From contig CM075988.1 in NCBI GenBank assembly GCA_038087875.1, positions 24,244,001-24,308,000 on the forward strand: a DNA stretch of 64,000 nucleotides, given 5' to 3'. Positions 3,260 through 45,682 of the stretch are shown here, piece after piece. Source of the stretch: Malacoraja senta (taxonomy: Eukaryota). The position numbers and the translations under genes were made by a program. The notes under the pieces were generated by a model. It made no database searches. It saw nothing but the letters and a program-made list of their open reading frames with translations, and had not been told where the DNA came from. Positions within the stretch are counted from its first letter, which is position 1. Every line of letters starts with the position of its first letter.

Positions 3260-3412
3260 GGGGTCAAGGAAAGAGCATTCACTTTGCAGCCCCGTTTCCA
3301 CCACCACACACAAGAAGCGACAAGACAGACACCACTGTATGCAGATGCCGAGAGGTGTGCTCAGCTCTGGCTGAACAACTTCCAATCTTGTGTGTAGACT
3401 CGATAAGAAGAA
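3260..3412 (+). mobile_element. Ribozyme-headed short retroposon, family B (degenerate copy)
   Basis: Homologous to 22616-22795; ends gataagaagaa; direct repeat tttaatatgg at 3252-3261 and 3416-3425. Confidence 0.85.
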
Positions 3413-8921: not shown

Positions 8922-9120
8922 NNNNNNNNNNNNNNNNNNNNNNNNNNNNNNNNNNNNNNNNNNNNNNNNNNNNNNNNNNNNNNNNNNNNNNNNNNNNNNN
9001 NNNNNNNNNNNNNNNNNNNNNNNNNNNNNNNNNNNNNNNNNNNNNNNNNNNNNNNNNNNNNNNNNNNNNNNNNNNNNNNNNNNNNNNNNNNNNNNNNNNN
9101 NNNNNNNNNNNNNNNNNNNN
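8922..9120. other. Assembly gap
   Basis: Run of N. Confidence 1.
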
Positions 9121-9589
9121 NAAAATGCAAGCAGTTTTTCTTTTCCTTCGTCCACGAGTACTTTTAGTATCCCCAGCCAATGGCCACGTGATGCTCACAC
9201 TGATTAATGGCACTGTGCAATCTCAATACCACGAACTAAAAGAAAACCCTGGGCTTCGGAAGAGAGGGAGGCTTTTCATGGTATCCATGGAGAATATTTG
9301 GTTGAGAAATTTTAAAAAGAAAGACTTGCAGATGCCTAATAATTTTCACAGCAGTCCAATGCATTTTACAGCCAAGAAAACAATTTTTAAAATCATAGCT
9401 ATTGATGTAATTTAGGAAACAGTGCTGCCAATGTGTGCATGATAAGGTTCACAAACAGCAATGTAACAACCACATGATGATCTGCATCCATGAGTTTGAT
9501 GAGGATGAAATATTGACCAAGGCAGTGGGCAGATATCCCAGATCTTCTTTAAACCAGAATCAACGGACTGAATGGCCTTCTACTATGCA

Positions 9590-10349: not shown

Positions 10350-10960
10350 ATATCAGGCAACTGAATCATCCTACTACAACCAGACAGCAGTGCTGAACTA
10401 CTCTCCACCTCTGATTCTTGACTGGGCTTTGCTGGCTTTACCTTGCACTGAATCTTATTCCCTTATCATGTATCTATACACTGTAAATGGATTGATTGTA
10501 ATCATGTATTGTCTTTCTGCTGACTGGTTAGCACGCAATAAAAAGCTTTTCACTGTACCTCAGTACAATAGACAATAGACAATAGGTACAGGAGTAGGCC
10601 ATTCGGCCCTTCGAGCCAGCACCGCCATTCAATGTGATCACGGGCTGATCATCCCCAATCAGTACCCCGTTCCTGCCTTCTCCCCATATCCCCTGACTCT
10701 GCTGTTTTTAAGAGCCCTATCTAGCTCTCTCTTGAAAGCATCACGAGAACCTGCCTCCACCGCCCTCTGAGGCAGAGAATTCCACAGACTCACCACTCTC
10801 TGTGAGAAAAGTGTTTCCTCGTCTCCGTTCTAAATGGCTTACTCCTTATTCTTAAACTGTGGCCCCTGGTTCTGGACTCCCCAACATCGGGAACATGTTT
10901 CCTGCCTCTAGTGTGTCCAAGCCCTTAACATGTGACAATAAACTAAACTGAACTGAACTG
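10350..10960 (+). mobile_element. Rex1/Babar 3' UTR with a CR1 fragment (minus, ~10565-10930) inserted in its tail
   Basis: Rex1 tail cactgtacctcagtac | tgtgacaataaactaaactgaact is split by a CR1 3' end with (gacaata)n. Confidence 0.8.
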
Positions 10961-20986: not shown

Positions 20987-22615
20987 TGTAGTTGTATGTT
21001 TTCTATGATTCGTTGAATAAAGACTTTAAGCGATTATTTGACCAGTTTCCCCCTTCCTATTCTGACTCACCTGAATTTAAAAGCTACATTTTAAGTGTGT
21101 GATGTACAGCCTCCCTTTGTGCCCTTGAGGTGTCATCACGTCTTTGAGCGGCATATTTGGTAACACACTGTACACAACATCTCTGCAACTCGTTGTTTCT
21201 TCTTAAGAGTATAAAAGTAGAACTTGACCCAATCAAATCATGACTCCAAAGGATAGTGTTCGTGTGCAGGCATTGCTAGTCAGTACGGACTCGGTGGGCC
21301 GAAGGGCCTGTTTCCGCATTGTATCTCTAAACTAAACTAAGAATGACATATTTTTGGCTGAAATCTTTCTGATATGCATTTGTTTTAGATTCCCCACACA
21401 TTTATCCAATATTCCTATTAAACGTGCTTTGATAAAGCCTTCTGTGCTGCAAAAATCACAGCTTAAAGAAGCCTCCCCTAACCTCTCTGTTCTCATTCCC
21501 AGTCTGATGTCGTGGACACAGCTTGCCTATTCACCCTTCATAATGTTATTAAACCTGACTAAATCTCCTCTTGGCTATTTTTGTTTTAATGTACAGTCCC
21601 GATTCCGCAAGCCTACCTTCAACATTTTAATTGCACCCATTGAAATTTTATTTTCTCAGCGCCAACGTTAAAGAGATTTTAGGTTTTTTTTCCAAGCAAT
21701 TTTAACTTTGCTTGAAGATGTAACTGAATTATTAATTTGCAGAGATTGGCTGCTGTCCATGTCAGCCTACGCAAGCCGTAGTCATACATTTTAGCTCCAA
21801 ATTAATGTTTATTAATGATTATATAACTTGGCAAACACACAGTGCTTTCGGACGGGAATCATCTGATAGCTGAGAAAGTAGCAGGGTGGTGGCTAACAGC
21901 TGAGTGAGAAGCTACAAATGGTTCAGGGAGGAGGTAAGGGAAGATGGTCAGAGGCCAAATGCCAATTCACCACAAAGATCAGCTTGCTTTCATAAAGTGC
22001 CATTCAAATAAGAAATCATTCCAAGAGACGCACTAACAAAAGAAGGGCCCGGAGCCAAAGGAAGAGGAAATGGACCATTAAAAGCTAAGTGAACCCTTAG
22101 GATTTATGAATGGTAGAATGATGCAGGAGCTTACAGAGTGAATATCGGAATGTGGAGCCTGGGAAGATGAAAGCACAACCACCAATGATTCAGCAAACAG
22201 AAAAGGCAATGATCAGAGTACAGGAATGGGAGGAACCTATGCCTCAAAACCCCAGTGCATCTTAAATGTAAACTAGAATGGTAACATCTCAGCGGTGGCC
22301 CCACGGCACCAAATTTCAGTTGTGATTGAGGTCCAAGACCATTGGAGTTGCCAATCTCCCACCGTCAGAGGCCAGCCCCATGGGCATTGGGACTCATTGG
22401 TCATGGTTGGAGTAGAGGCAGGGCAGAGCAACGGAGCCCAAGGTTTCGTTGGTTGGAGGAAGTGAGTGGGAGTTGCGAGTGGTAAAGGAAGTTCAATGTG
22501 TAGGAAGGAACTGCAGATGCTGGTTTGAACCGAAGATAGACACAAAATGCTGGAGTAACTCAGCGGGACAGGCGGCATCTCTGCACCTATTTTCTATGTT
22601 TATATGACTGTTGGC

Positions 22616-22668
22616 GGGGTCAAGGAAAGAGCGTTCATGTCGCGGCCCCTGTTTCCACCAATCTTTCC
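22616..22668 (+). ncRNA. Minimal HDV-like (CPEB3-like) ribozyme
   Basis: P1 GGGGTC/GGCCCC(T), P2 GGAAAGA/TCTTTCC, P3 GCG/CGC, L3 TTCATGT, J4/2 ACCAA, in the canonical nested double-pseudoknot order. Confidence 0.8.
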
Positions 22669-22795
22669 ACCACCACGCACAAGAAGACACAAGAAGCGAC
22701 AAGACAGACACCATTGTGTGCAGATGCCGAGAAGTGTGCTCAGCTCTGGCTGAACAACTTCTAATCTTGTGTGTGGTGGACTCGATAAGAAGAAG
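22616..22795 (+). mobile_element. Ribozyme-headed short retroposon, family B
   Basis: 12-bp TSD atgactgttggc at 22604-22615 and 22796-22807; HDV-like fold at the 5' end; ends gataagaagaag. Confidence 0.9.
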
Positions 22796-22877
22796 ATGAC
22801 TGTTGGCAGATCAATTTCCCTCCTGGGATAAATAAAGTTCTATCGTACTGTCTCGTACCATATCGTATGATAGGTTT

Positions 22878-22999
22878 GGGGTGAGAGATTGCAACCTGTT
22901 TCGACGAATGCAATCAACGCGACGTGCACAAACAAATAGATCAAATAGAACAAGTTGACCCACAACTTTAGGCTGTGCACGCCATACGCAAGAAGAAGA
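22878..22999 (+). mobile_element. Ribozyme-headed short retroposon, family A (internally deleted copy)
   Basis: Homologous to the reverse complement of 32223-32366; 16-nt deletion in the ribozyme core; imperfect TSD gtatg(a/g)tagg. Confidence 0.85.
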
Positions 23000-23524
23000 G
23001 GATGTATGGTAGGCACAGGACTGAGTTTGTGATATGCGGAGGTGCCTGAGGAGTTATATGGCCCACTTCTGTTTCTAATACAAAACGGTATCAATACAAA
23101 GTGCCACCAACCATATTAACAAACATAAATTATAGTTGTAGCTTTGGAGATGGCATTGTCTGATTTCTTTCTTTCATTCAGAGTTGCTCTGTTGCCATTC
23201 TCAATGTACACGCTGATGGCAAATTAATGCGTTGTTCAGCCAGGGCACGTCAGCTCCCAAATCTCCTCATGCATAAACTTAATAATTCCGTTTCAAAGGA
23301 AGCACGAACAAACCTATTGAAAGAGCTATTTGTTCAAGGCATGAGGAAGAAAAACTGGACGCACACAAAAATCATAACAGCTACAGTGTCAGGTGTGAGG
23401 ATGGATATAACATGAAATTGAAACAGGAGTAGGTCATTTAGTCACTCATGTGTGCTCTGCCGTTCGATAAGATTCTAGCTGGTATTTTACCTTAGCGTTA
23501 CTTTCGTGAGAAAGACACACATTA

Positions 23525-27883: not shown

Positions 27884-28019
27884 CTTCTTCTTGCGTGTGG
27901 CGTGCACAGCCTAAAGTTGTAGGTCAACTTGTTCTATTTGATCTCTTGTTTGTGCACGCCAGGTTGATTGCATTAGTCGAAACAGGGCGGACCAGGTGAA
28001 GGTTGCAATCTCCCACCCC
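27884..28019 (-). mobile_element. Ribozyme-headed short retroposon, family A
   Basis: 10-bp TSD cagcatggat at 27874-27883 and 28022-28031; HDV-like fold at 28019-27966; (AAG)n tail. Confidence 0.9.
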
Positions 28020-30239: not shown

Positions 30240-30742
30240 GACTTTAGACTTCAGCGATACAGTGCATAAACAGGCCCTTCAGCCCACCAAGTCCATGCCA
30301 ACCAGCAATCACCCTGTAGACTAGCACTATGCTACACACTAGGGACAATTTACAATTCACCGAAGCCAATTAACTTACAAACCTGTTTAAGAAGGAACTG
30401 CAGATGCTGGAAAATCGAAGGCAGACAAAAGTGCTGGAGAAACTCAGCGGGTGCAGCAACATCTATGGAGCGAAGGAAATAGGCAACGTTTCGGCCCGAA
30501 ATGTTGCCTATTTCCTTCGCTCCATAGATGCTGCTGCACCCGCTGAGTTTCTCCAGCACTTTTGTCTAACCTACAAACCTGTGTGTCTTTGGAGTGTGGG
30601 AGGAAACTGGAGCACCTAGAGAACAGGAAGAACATACAAACTCCGTACAGACGGCAACCGTAGTCAGGATCAAACACGTAGTCAGGATCAAACCCGGGTC
30701 TCTGGCGATGTAAGGCAGCAACTCTACCGCTGCGCCACCGTG
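30240..30742 (-). mobile_element. V-SINE with a Penelope palindrome inserted (30387-30566)
   Basis: SINE motifs on both sides; TSD taac(t/c)tacaaacctgt at 30371-30386 and 30567-30582. Confidence 0.88.
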
Positions 30743-30999: not shown

Positions 31000-31293
31000 A
31001 GGGTCTGAAGAAGGGTTTCGGACCGAAACGTTGCCTATTTCCTTCGCACCATAGATGCTGACCTATGTTTGACCTTTACAGTGAAGGCAGACAAAAGTGC
31101 TGGAGAAACTCAGCGGGTGCAGCAGCATCTATGGAGCGAAGGAAATAGGCAACGTTTCGGCCCGAAACCCTTTCGGGTTTCGTCCCGAAACGTTGCCTAT
31201 TTCCTTCAGGGTTTCGTCCCGAAACGTTGCCTATTTCCTTCGCTCCATAGATGCTGCTGCACCCGCTGAGTTTCTCCAGCATTTTTGTCTACC
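31000..31293. mobile_element. Complex Penelope-derived palindrome
   Basis: ctgaagaagggtttcggaccgaaacgttg core plus nested inverted and tandem arms; direct repeat atcagtaaaataaaa on both sides. Confidence 0.85.
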
Positions 31294-32222: not shown

Positions 32223-32366
32223 TTTATTCTTCTTCTTGTGTATGGCGTGCACAGCCTAAAGTTGGAGGTCAACTTGTTCTATTTGATGTTATTTGATTGT
32301 GCACGCCGGGTTGATTGCATTAGTCGAAACAGGGTGGACCACGTGAAGGTTGCAATCTCCCACCCC
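32223..32366 (-). mobile_element. Ribozyme-headed short retroposon, family A (best copy)
   Basis: 12-bp TSD atacagaatagt at 32211-32222 and 32367-32378; tail AAGAAGAAGAATAAA. Confidence 0.92.
32313..32366 (-). ncRNA. Minimal HDV-like ribozyme (54 nt)
   Basis: GGGGTGG GA GATTGCA ACC TTCACGT GGT CCACCCT GTTTCGA CTAA TGCAATC: P1 7 bp with G1-U wobble, P2 7 bp, P3 3 bp, L3, catalytic-C J4/2 CUAA. Confidence 0.87.
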
Positions 32367-37090: not shown

Positions 37091-37290
37091 NNNNNNNNNN
37101 NNNNNNNNNNNNNNNNNNNNNNNNNNNNNNNNNNNNNNNNNNNNNNNNNNNNNNNNNNNNNNNNNNNNNNNNNNNNNNNNNNNNNNNNNNNNNNNNNNNN
37201 NNNNNNNNNNNNNNNNNNNNNNNNNNNNNNNNNNNNNNNNNNNNNNNNNNNNNNNNNNNNNNNNNNNNNNNNNNNNNNNNNNNNNNNNNN
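37091..37290. other. Assembly gap
   Basis: Run of N. Confidence 1.
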
Positions 37291-37603
37291 GCTACTGAGT
37301 TTCTAGAACTGTTCTCTCATATTGGTGAATAGTTGTTTGAAGAAGATTTTAAAGGCAGTGGTGATGTGGGGGGGGGGGGGGGGGGAGCAGCGGGTGAATA
37401 TAGAACAGTTAGCCTGACATCAGTAATAAGGAATTATTAAGGAGATAATTACAGGGATTTGGAACATAATCCCTTCTCCTTCTCTCCAGAGATGCTGCCT
37501 GTCCTGCTGAGTTTTTTGTGTCTATCTTCGGTTTAAACCAGCATCTGCAGTTCCTTCCTACACATAATGATAGGATTGTGTGGAGTCCAATGGATGTTTC
37601 ATT

Positions 37604-37765
37604 AAGCAGAAACAAAGAACTGCAGATGCTGGTTCATACCACAGATAGACACAAAGTGCCGGAATAACTCAGCGGGTCAGGCAGCATCTCTGGAGAAAAA
37701 GGATCCATGATGTCCAGAGATGCTGGGTGACCCGCTGAGTTATTCCGGCATTTTGTGCCGATATT
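37604..37765. mobile_element. Penelope-derived palindromic insertion
   Basis: Inverted arms; 13-bp TSD tggatgtttcatt at 37591-37603 and 37766-37778. Confidence 0.85.
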
Positions 37766-42298: not shown

Positions 42299-42459
42299 TT
42301 CAAGAAGGAACTGCAGATGCCTGAAAATCGAAGGTAGACAAAAATGCTGGAGAAACTCAGTGGGTGCGACAGCATCTATAGAGCGAAGGAAATAGGCAAC
42401 GTTTCGGGCCGGATCGTTGCCTATTTCCTTCGCTCCACAGATGCTGTCGCACCCGCTGA
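42299..42459. mobile_element. Penelope-derived palindromic insertion
   Basis: 15-bp TSD gtttatgaatgaatg at 42284-42298 and 42460-42474. Confidence 0.88.
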
Positions 42460-45524: not shown

Positions 45525-45682
45525 GTGGGAAGGAACTGCAGATGCTGGTTTAAACCGAAGATAGACACAAAATGCTGGAGTAACTCAACGGGATAGGCAG
45601 CATCTCTGGAGAGAAGGAATTCCTTCTCTCCAGATATGCTGCCTGTCCCGCTGAGTTTCTCCAGTATTTTGTGTCTATCTTC
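45525..45682. mobile_element. Penelope-derived palindromic insertion
   Basis: Inverted arms centred on agaaggaattccttct. Confidence 0.85.

Follow-up and report, generated by a model that had tools for sequence, protein, structure and literature searches.

How does a short mobile element in a cartilaginous fish come to begin with an RNA motif so like the ribozyme found in the CPEB3 intron of mammals? The question is raised by a 64-kb stretch of the Malacoraja senta genome (1.94 Gb in 6,182 contigs), which we refer to as the window. At positions 22616-22795 on the plus strand, the window carries a 180-nt retroposon copy, here assigned to family B, whose head is predicted to form a hepatitis delta virus (HDV)-like ribozyme of the CPEB3 type. 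An earlier, sequence-only reading of the window had offered two explanations for this likeness: convergence on one catalytic core, or kinship of a vertebrate retroposon lineage with whatever gave rise to the CPEB3 ribozyme. The second is now better supported, because the 5' ends of a long interspersed nuclear element (LINE) in the same genome carry predicted ribozymes that score 47-64 bits with the Rfam model of the CPEB3 ribozyme and pass its cut-off. We consider it probable that family B is a ~175-nt non-autonomous retroposon of the kind that lacks long terminal repeats (non-LTR), that its head is an offshoot of the LINE 5' ribozyme without the paired region P4, that an RTE-like LINE mobilises it, and that it is kin to the CPEB3 ribozyme.

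Family B and family A as repeats

The copy at 22616-22795 lies between perfect 12-bp target-site duplications (TSDs), ATGACTGTTGGC at 22604-22615, adjoining the element's first G, and again at 22796-22807. Direct reading of the letters thus agrees with the sequence-only reading on the position, sequence and duplication of the element. Its first part (22616-22668) reads as a decayed copy of a minimal HDV-like ribozyme. The 5' strand of P1, GGGGTC (22616-22621), is followed by AA (22622-22623) and by the 5' strand of P2, GGAAAGA (22624-22630), which pairs with TCTTTCC at 22662-22668. P3 is formed by GCG (22631-22633) and CGC (22641-22643) around the loop L3, TTCATGT (22634-22640). The 3' strand of P1, GGCCCCT (22644-22650), is followed by a single G (22651), a linker TTTCCA (22652-22657) that takes the place of P4, and the joining segment J4/2, CCAA (22658-22661), in which 22658 is the presumed catalytic C. 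A structured body (22669-22779) with a long closing stem and an inner hairpin comes next. The 3' end, GACTCGATAAGAAGAAG (22779-22795), is unpaired in the fold and includes an (AAG)3 tail at 22787-22795, so that the element terminates in GATAAGAAGAAG.

The 15-bp stem already noticed in the letters, 22670-22684 with 22765-22779, proved to be the closing helix of the predicted minimum-free-energy fold of the body (-44.5 kcal/mol, z = -4.2), which none of 200 shuffled sequences equalled. A copy of the majority form (L013) gave z = -4.4, with the closing stem of 12 bp that is usual in the family.

A first look through the genome yielded 1,628 candidates for the 180-nt element. All 40 scored matches were essentially full length (query start 1-3, end 178-180), and the 39 copies other than that of the window showed 94-96% identity. 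TSDs of 8-13 bp were recognized in 21 of 30 fetched sister copies and adjoin GGGG directly in 17 of those 21. Most copies are 175 nt long and end in a fixed (AAG)3 that is occasionally expanded. The window copy departs from this majority in several ways. L3 is TTCACGT in the majority, as the sequence-only reading had predicted for the family, and the window copy has a C-to-T change at the CpG there. It also has four C rather than three in the 3' strand of P1, and a 3-nt insert in the 3' strand of the closing stem. The majority P1 has 6 bp (GGGGTC/GGCCCT); the copies begin at G1, which stands opposite T as a G1-U wobble, and the extra C of the window copy shifts this register. The seeming lack of G1 that had been remarked upon is therefore an artefact of the minority form, and the consensus start is GGGGTC, not GGGGGTC as had been expected. 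The window copy is an inactive ("dead") one and differs from its sisters at ~4-6% of positions. Fragments of the element are present in contigs of four runs (four coded organisms), and the private differences of the window copy are missing from most of these contigs. The element's left flank, 22540-22587, is itself a very abundant interspersed repeat, whose summed contig depth in the four runs is orders of magnitude above that of the element.

The TSDs, the precise 5' end, the short repeat tail and the high copy number bear out the description of the element as a mini-retroposon with a (predicted) ribozyme head. No promoter of its own was detected in the family-B element, and no tRNA-like head was found by ARAGORN in 22400-23100, where Rfam gives only the CPEB3 family. 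Since no tRNA, 7SL or 5S head was found, family B is better called a SINE-like non-autonomous retroposon than a short interspersed nuclear element (SINE) in the strict sense.

In a genome-wide count, the core pattern TTCACGT-N8-9-TGTTTCSACSAA was found 3,477 times and its reversed control once. Among the first 100 places listed, 31 are of the B type and 69 belong to a second family, A, which had 2,346 first-look candidates. The intact family-A head reads GGGGTGG-GA-GATTGCA-ACC-TTCACGT-GGT-CC(G/A)CCCT-G-TTTCGA-CGAA-TGCAATC; a body closed by a stem and an (AAG)n tail come after it. The two families had been described as unrelated. They have in common L3, J1/4, the 6-nt linker, a C-N-AA form of J4/2 and the (AAG)n tail, and they differ in P1, P2 and P3 by compensatory changes only; by these features, family A is to be regarded as a sister of family B. 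An abundant variant of family A is without 13 nt (L3, the 3' strand of P3 and part of the 3' strand of P1), so that GCAACC is joined to CTGTTTCG. It accounts for 15 of 39 non-self family-A matches, with examples at loci L032, L034-L037 and L040 and at 22878-22998 of the window. The deletion may have arisen by reverse transcriptase (RT) skipping between short ACC repeats, or the variant may be a ribozyme-less subfamily that still spreads.

An RTE-like LINE with the same kind of head

Heads in which the same L3 and P1 end precede anything but the linker of families A and B were sought, which gave 149 matches, with 1 for the control. An earlier search with the core pattern, from which the P2 of A and B was excluded, had given 53 matches, and its six odd loci were only mutated or rearranged copies of A and B. 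The new heads (type C) read GGGGATC-AA-GGTAGAA-GCG-TTCACGT-CGC-GATCCCT-GT-CAAGTAAT-loop-ATTACTTG-CGAA-TTCTACC, a predicted full ribozyme with P4. An ATG lies approximately 35 nt downstream of the head, with an N-terminus that resembles that of an endonuclease. A 3,107-nt copy begins with GGGGATC and finishes in ...GACACGAAAAGAAGAAG, whose tail is (AAG)3; an 11-bp TSD adjoins its G1. Its open reading frame (ORF) lies in three frame pieces with matches to Exo_endo_phos_2 (36 bits) and RVT_1 (117 bits). Relatives that are 50-69% identical, with 900-1,000 amino acids on ~3.2-kb contigs, come from insects, echinoderms, amphioxus, a lizard and teleosts; a search of the ESM Atlas with the RT piece returned generic RVT_1 clusters only.

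A passage in PMC2887409 gives the layout of the RTE clade as ~3.2 kb with one ORF for endonuclease and RT and a simple-repeat 3' end. By this layout we call the LINE RTE-like. When up to 2 mismatches are allowed, the genome holds 15 matches to the 5' 35-mer of the LINE versus 209 to its 3' 34-mer, at least 100 of the latter exact, which indicates that the LINE is young and mostly 5'-truncated. Its non-autonomous derivatives outnumber it by more than 10:1. The LINE 3' end has no significant fold (z = +1.0).

Could family B have been mobilised by another LINE, of which the one found here is only a relative? The body of family B is unlike the untranslated regions (UTRs) of the LINE, and the leader sequence ACCAC that follows its ribozyme is common to heads of types D, E and F (described below) and not to type C. 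What links family B to the LINE is the type of head, the 17 nucleotides at the 3' end, the length of the TSDs and the young age of the LINE, and the clade of the LINE was assigned from its layout; these points weigh against the partnership that we propose. The 3' ends, GACTCGATAAGAAGAAG in family B and GACACGAAAAGAAGAAG in the LINE, are nevertheless identical at 15 of 17 terminal nucleotides, including the same (AAG)3, and TSD lengths are similar (11 bp for the LINE, 9-13 bp for family B). The abundance of exact 3' ends shows that the LINE found is young, and no second LINE with the same tail turned up in a search that was not exhaustive. We therefore regard a different partner as rather unlikely.

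Simple internal deletion of the LINE was considered as the origin of families A and B and was rejected. Compared with the 5' and 3' 400 nt of the LINE, the bodies of both families showed similarity within the shuffled range, which also counts against the proposed partnership.

Likeness to the mammalian CPEB3 ribozyme

The Rfam family RF00622, "Mammalian CPEB3 ribozyme" (CPEB3_ribozyme), has a gathering cut-off of 35 bits, and the whole window gave no match at Rfam gathering thresholds. In E-value mode, RF00622 was the only Rfam family to match the element region, with an alignment over 22604-22668 that scored 32.2 bits (E = 7e-7 in 401 nt and 1.2e-4 in the whole window). The alignment to this family that the sequence-only reading had called for produced the sole Rfam match of the element region, at a score below the cut-off. 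Some family-B copies with four C in P1 do pass, at 35-43.7 bits. Family B's own likeness to the CPEB3 ribozyme would not have settled the question of origin.

The heads of the LINE carry the comparison further. At six of six loci tested, heads of families C and D scored 47.4-61.3 bits with RF00622. A scan of the genome with the model scored 59 candidates; of these, E <= 1e-3 was reached by 51 and the cut-off by 39, with a top score of 64.2 bits. Heads of families C to F lay at 38-64 bits. In 14 control genomes, there were no RF00622 matches. The 30 loci returned from the scan comprised 12 of type C (the LINE), 3 of type D (L106, L110 and L114), 5 of type E (L113, L115, L117, L123 and L126), 4 of type F (L116, L119, L125 and L127) and 6 of family B. 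Type D heads start with GGGGGTC and have a longer P4. Type E is nearest to the model: P1 has the 5' strand GGGGGCC in L115 and the 3' strand GGCCCCT in L117, as in the model, and the P4 stem of L126, CAGATTC/GAATCTG, is the model consensus with the same seven pairs. L117 is identical to the model at 51 of 60 positions, as counted by eye from the printed alignment, and in some copies the stems P1, P3 and P4 have exactly the letters of the model.

We also asked how general this likeness is among RTE heads. A covariance model built from 25 heads was used to search 80 metagenome loci encoding relatives of the RT, and it matched 7 of them; L138, L139 and L140 are the same locus in three records and were counted once. 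L138 (2459 to ~5600) is an RTE relative with an RT 64% identical to that of the LINE. Its head scores 55.6 bits with RF00622, and its P1, P2 (GCAGAA/UUCUGC) and P3 are identical to those of the model. The element also carries an ACCAC leader and is flanked by an 11-bp TSD; its 3' end reads ...AGACACGA, after which comes (ATC)n. The HDV-like heads of four relatives at greater distance (RT ~40% identical) share an L3 of the form UUC[AU][CG]GU but have other helices. When 10 metagenome loci were compared with RF00622 at E <= 1, only the L138 locus matched, and two others of the ten gave weak matches to a different HDV-like family, below its cut-off. Because this form of L3 is common to distant RTE heads, identity in L3 alone says little; as only L138 matches RF00622, helices of the CPEB3 type mark one sublineage. 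The sequence-only reading had named equal likeness to CPEB3 in many unrelated HDV-like ribozymes as the finding that would undo a special relationship; among the RTE relatives compared, the likeness was seen at 1 of 10 loci.

By sequence, the LINE ribozyme lineage (families C, D, E and F together with L138) belongs to the same family as the ribozyme of the mammalian CPEB3 intron. Convergence would explain this without common descent, in that few sequences may be able to form an HDV-like active site. A passage in Eickbush et al. 2013 (PMC3774820) argues that HDV-like ribozymes can come to resemble one another in the active site by convergence. The L3 form found in otherwise different distant RTE heads fits that argument, as does family A, which has the same loops yet barely matches RF00622 (1 of 6 copies, 17.1 bits). 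The majority form of family B also tells against kinship when taken by itself, with 26.8-31.7 bits in five of five copies, below the cut-off. The identity seen here, however, reaches helices that are free to vary within the same lineage. A and B have no P4, and C, D and F differ in theirs, yet L126 has the model's 7-bp P4 exactly; such identity is hard to ascribe to constraint. The P2 of L138 is that of the model as well, and scores of 47-64 bits stand far above other RTE heads, which had no match at E <= 1. Because the identity includes helices that vary freely among close relatives, we think convergence an unlikely source of the likeness; the CPEB3 ribozyme is more likely to have descended from this lineage of LINE ribozymes. 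Since the lineage falls in the same sequence family as the CPEB3 ribozyme, the latter is most likely the retained 5' end of an RTE-type element. On balance we lean towards the view that mammals domesticated the 5' end of an RTE-type LINE, or of a short derivative of one, as their CPEB3 intron ribozyme, and that the ribozyme lineage it came from is still mobile in cartilaginous fish.

Older copies of types D, E and F share only the ribozyme and a leader of ~30-45 nt beginning with ACCAC, after which they diverge from one another. The head may act as a module that is joined to different 3' sequences. The L115 element (1-261; G000 C3:83740467-83740727, minus strand) consists of a type-E ribozyme and leader (1-101), an unrelated repeat (118-253), A10 and a short TSD. 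The two halves of its joined repeat lie ~52 nt apart in other loci, and L115 looks like a chimeric retrocopy.

Predicted fold, proposed mechanism and known systems

To examine whether the heads are constrained as RNA, we used two alignments. The first holds 41 sequences, namely the window copy with 20 copies each of families A and B in genome order. In this alignment, 91.3% of the cells pair, compared with 36-50% when the partners are slid, and P1 and P2 stay paired; the sequence-only reading had named loss of this pairing from the consensus as a refutation. Eight pairs change on both sides and all eight keep pairing, with essentially one A-versus-B split per pair. The second alignment contains 25 heads (8 C, 3 D, 5 E, 4 F, 3 B and 2 A) and omits the type-C copies L103, L112, L118 and L120, whose 5' ends are mutated or cut. 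Here, 90.4% of the cells pair, compared with 35-45% for slid partners, and 18 of 26 pairs change on both sides, compared with 10.8 ± 1.8 in shuffles; none of 500 shuffles reached 18. Seven of the eight pairs of P4, a stem that is present in families C to F and replaced by the 6-nt linker TTTCCA in family B, are among the double-changed pairs. The G-T of J1/4 and A65 of J4/2 are invariant, and the column of the presumed catalytic C, which stands in the context CCAA in B and CGAA or CTAA in A and C to F, is at least 90% conserved. Pairing across the families supports a nested double pseudoknot in which P1 encloses P3 and P2 crosses P1. The heads are predicted to be self-cleaving. The place of G1, opposite T in majority family-B copies and next to the TSD in 17 of 30, agrees with a cut at G1.

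Several observations weigh against this account. P1.1 is a single invariant C-G pair and so carries no covariation information, and most of the covariation counted stems from a small number of between-family splits rather than from many separate events. For a P4-less form with this linker in a eukaryote, activity is a prediction. Nine of the 30 family-B copies had no clear TSD. The family-A variant without P3 and L3 still starts at GGGG beside its TSD, which means either that the core was lost or skipped in reverse transcription or that a ribozyme is not always needed to define the 5' end. That the conserved head is instead an internal promoter or a protein-binding site for the RT, with 5' ends set by transcription initiation, would agree with this variant, with cleavage being predicted and with L1Tc, in which a passage of PMC3383444 gives the same 77 nt as promoter and ribozyme, but it is very improbable given that compensatory changes keep P1 to P4 paired in the double-pseudoknot topology, a constraint at the RNA level, that C-N-AA and the J1/4 G-T are conserved, and that the covariance model which the heads match derives from a ribozyme of proven activity.

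From the anatomy of the elements, we infer how a self-cleaving head may serve family B. A source copy would be transcribed by read-through as part of a longer host transcript. Its 52-nt head would then fold as a minimal HDV-like double pseudoknot, with P1, P2, P3, one P1.1 pair, the 6-nt linker and the catalytic C, and would cut immediately 5' of G1, which would give the element RNA its exact 5' end. Ruminski et al. in 2011 reportedly thought that a ribozyme at the exact 5' end of an element releases the element RNA from a co-transcript. The 3' end of family B, with its (AAG)n tail, would imitate that of the young ~3.1-kb RTE-like LINE and be recognised by the LINE protein, which would use target-primed reverse transcription to insert a copy of the RNA at a nicked target and so leave TSDs of 9-13 bp.

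The rest of the window contains further copies of both families. A second, older family-B copy at 3260-3412 (plus strand), found by blastn of the element against the window, is 80% identical, has lost the 3' strand of P2 and scores 23.3 bits with RF00622. The family-A variant at 22878-22998 (plus strand) lies 82 nt downstream of the family-B copy, and two family-A copies with full ribozyme heads lie on the minus strand at 27884-28019 (TSD ATCCATGCTG) and 32229-32366 (TSD ACTATTCTGTAT). Near-perfect long hairpins at 400-492, 30438-30553, 31022-31270, 37520-37745, 42357-42459 and 45578-45661 give matches on both strands to models of microRNA precursors from plants and animals. Their scores are 35-44 bits against cut-offs of 73-85, and they have the look of a palindromic interspersed repeat present in several copies rather than of microRNA genes. 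The window also has two runs of 200 N, at 8922-9121 and 37091-37290, which represent gaps in the assembly or withheld sequence. Elsewhere in the assembly, the mitochondrial genome forms a head-to-tail concatemer with a 16,723-bp period on contig C2915 (COX1 at 10356, 27079, 43802 and 60525) and occurs again on C6182; the concatemer is probably an assembly artefact. Translated with table 2, the COX1 of this assembly shares 97% and 95% identity with representatives of shark clusters and no more than 90% with mammals, which places the host among the cartilaginous fish.

How do these elements compare with known systems? Like the CPEB3 ribozyme, the head of family B is predicted to be an HDV-like double pseudoknot with P3 GCG/CGC, majority L3 UUCACGU, a C-rich end of the 3' strand of P1, J1/4 G-U and a C-N-AA J4/2, and the LINE heads have P4 in addition. 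Family B differs in that it has no P4, a P1 of 6 bp and another P2. The CPEB3 ribozyme is single-copy in an intron of mammalian CPEB3, whereas family B is multi-copy, with its heads at the 5' ends of mobile elements in a cartilaginous fish. According to a passage in PMC6765202, non-LTR elements of the RTE, R2, Baggins and L1Tc kinds carry HDV-like ribozymes at their 5' ends, which would free the element RNA from a co-transcript. The LINE likewise has a predicted HDV-like ribozyme at its exact 5' end; it differs in its vertebrate host, in its sequence-level match to CPEB3 and in the excess of its derivatives.

According to passages in PMC3414825 and PMC3383444, the short R2 elements known as SIDEs (short internally deleted elements) and trypanosome NARTc keep a LINE-type ribozyme head and a LINE-type 3' end and are copied by the LINE protein. 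Families A and B resemble them in being short, with a predicted LINE-type HDV-like head and a LINE-type 3' end. R2 SIDEs are internal deletions of R2 that insert in 28S ribosomal DNA, whereas A and B insert genome-wide, have bodies unrelated to the LINE and have lost P4. Minimal P4-less HDV-like ribozymes with P1, P2, P3 and P1.1 only are described from metagenomes (drz-Mtgn) and phages (theta) in part of PMC10879173. Family B shares the absence of P4 with these; they come from phages and metagenomes and have other functions, whereas the heads of family B belong to a eukaryotic retroposon and are visibly derived from a P4-bearing LINE ribozyme.

Since HDV-like heads of retroelements and P4-less forms have both been described, the kind itself is known. 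What appears to be new is a match to the curated CPEB3 model outside mammals and in the context of a LINE, together with a P4-less offshoot that heads thousands of short retroposons. A search of the open-access literature turned up no paper connecting the CPEB3 ribozyme with sharks or with RTE elements; a mention of such a link may be found in Webb 2009, in Ruminski 2011 or in Webb and Luptak 2011.

Among mammals the CPEB3 ribozyme is conserved, and a connection with memory has been drawn. It was reported in 2021 as not found outside mammals (PMC8233481), and so it has had no outgroup. The dozens of matches that pass the RF00622 cut-off at the 5' ends of the RTE-like LINE and its relatives turn the origin of the CPEB3 ribozyme into a testable question. 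Is the CPEB3 ribozyme nested among RTE heads on a ribozyme tree, and do the CPEB3 introns of mammals hold relics of RTE elements? If the proposed descent is true, these elements would be the missing outgroup. They would also show, in a single genome, how loss of P4 turned a ribozyme into the minimal 52-nt form at the head of thousands of parasitic retroposons. The full, shortened and P4-less versions of one ribozyme, each in thousands of copies, offer a natural experiment for mutational analysis.

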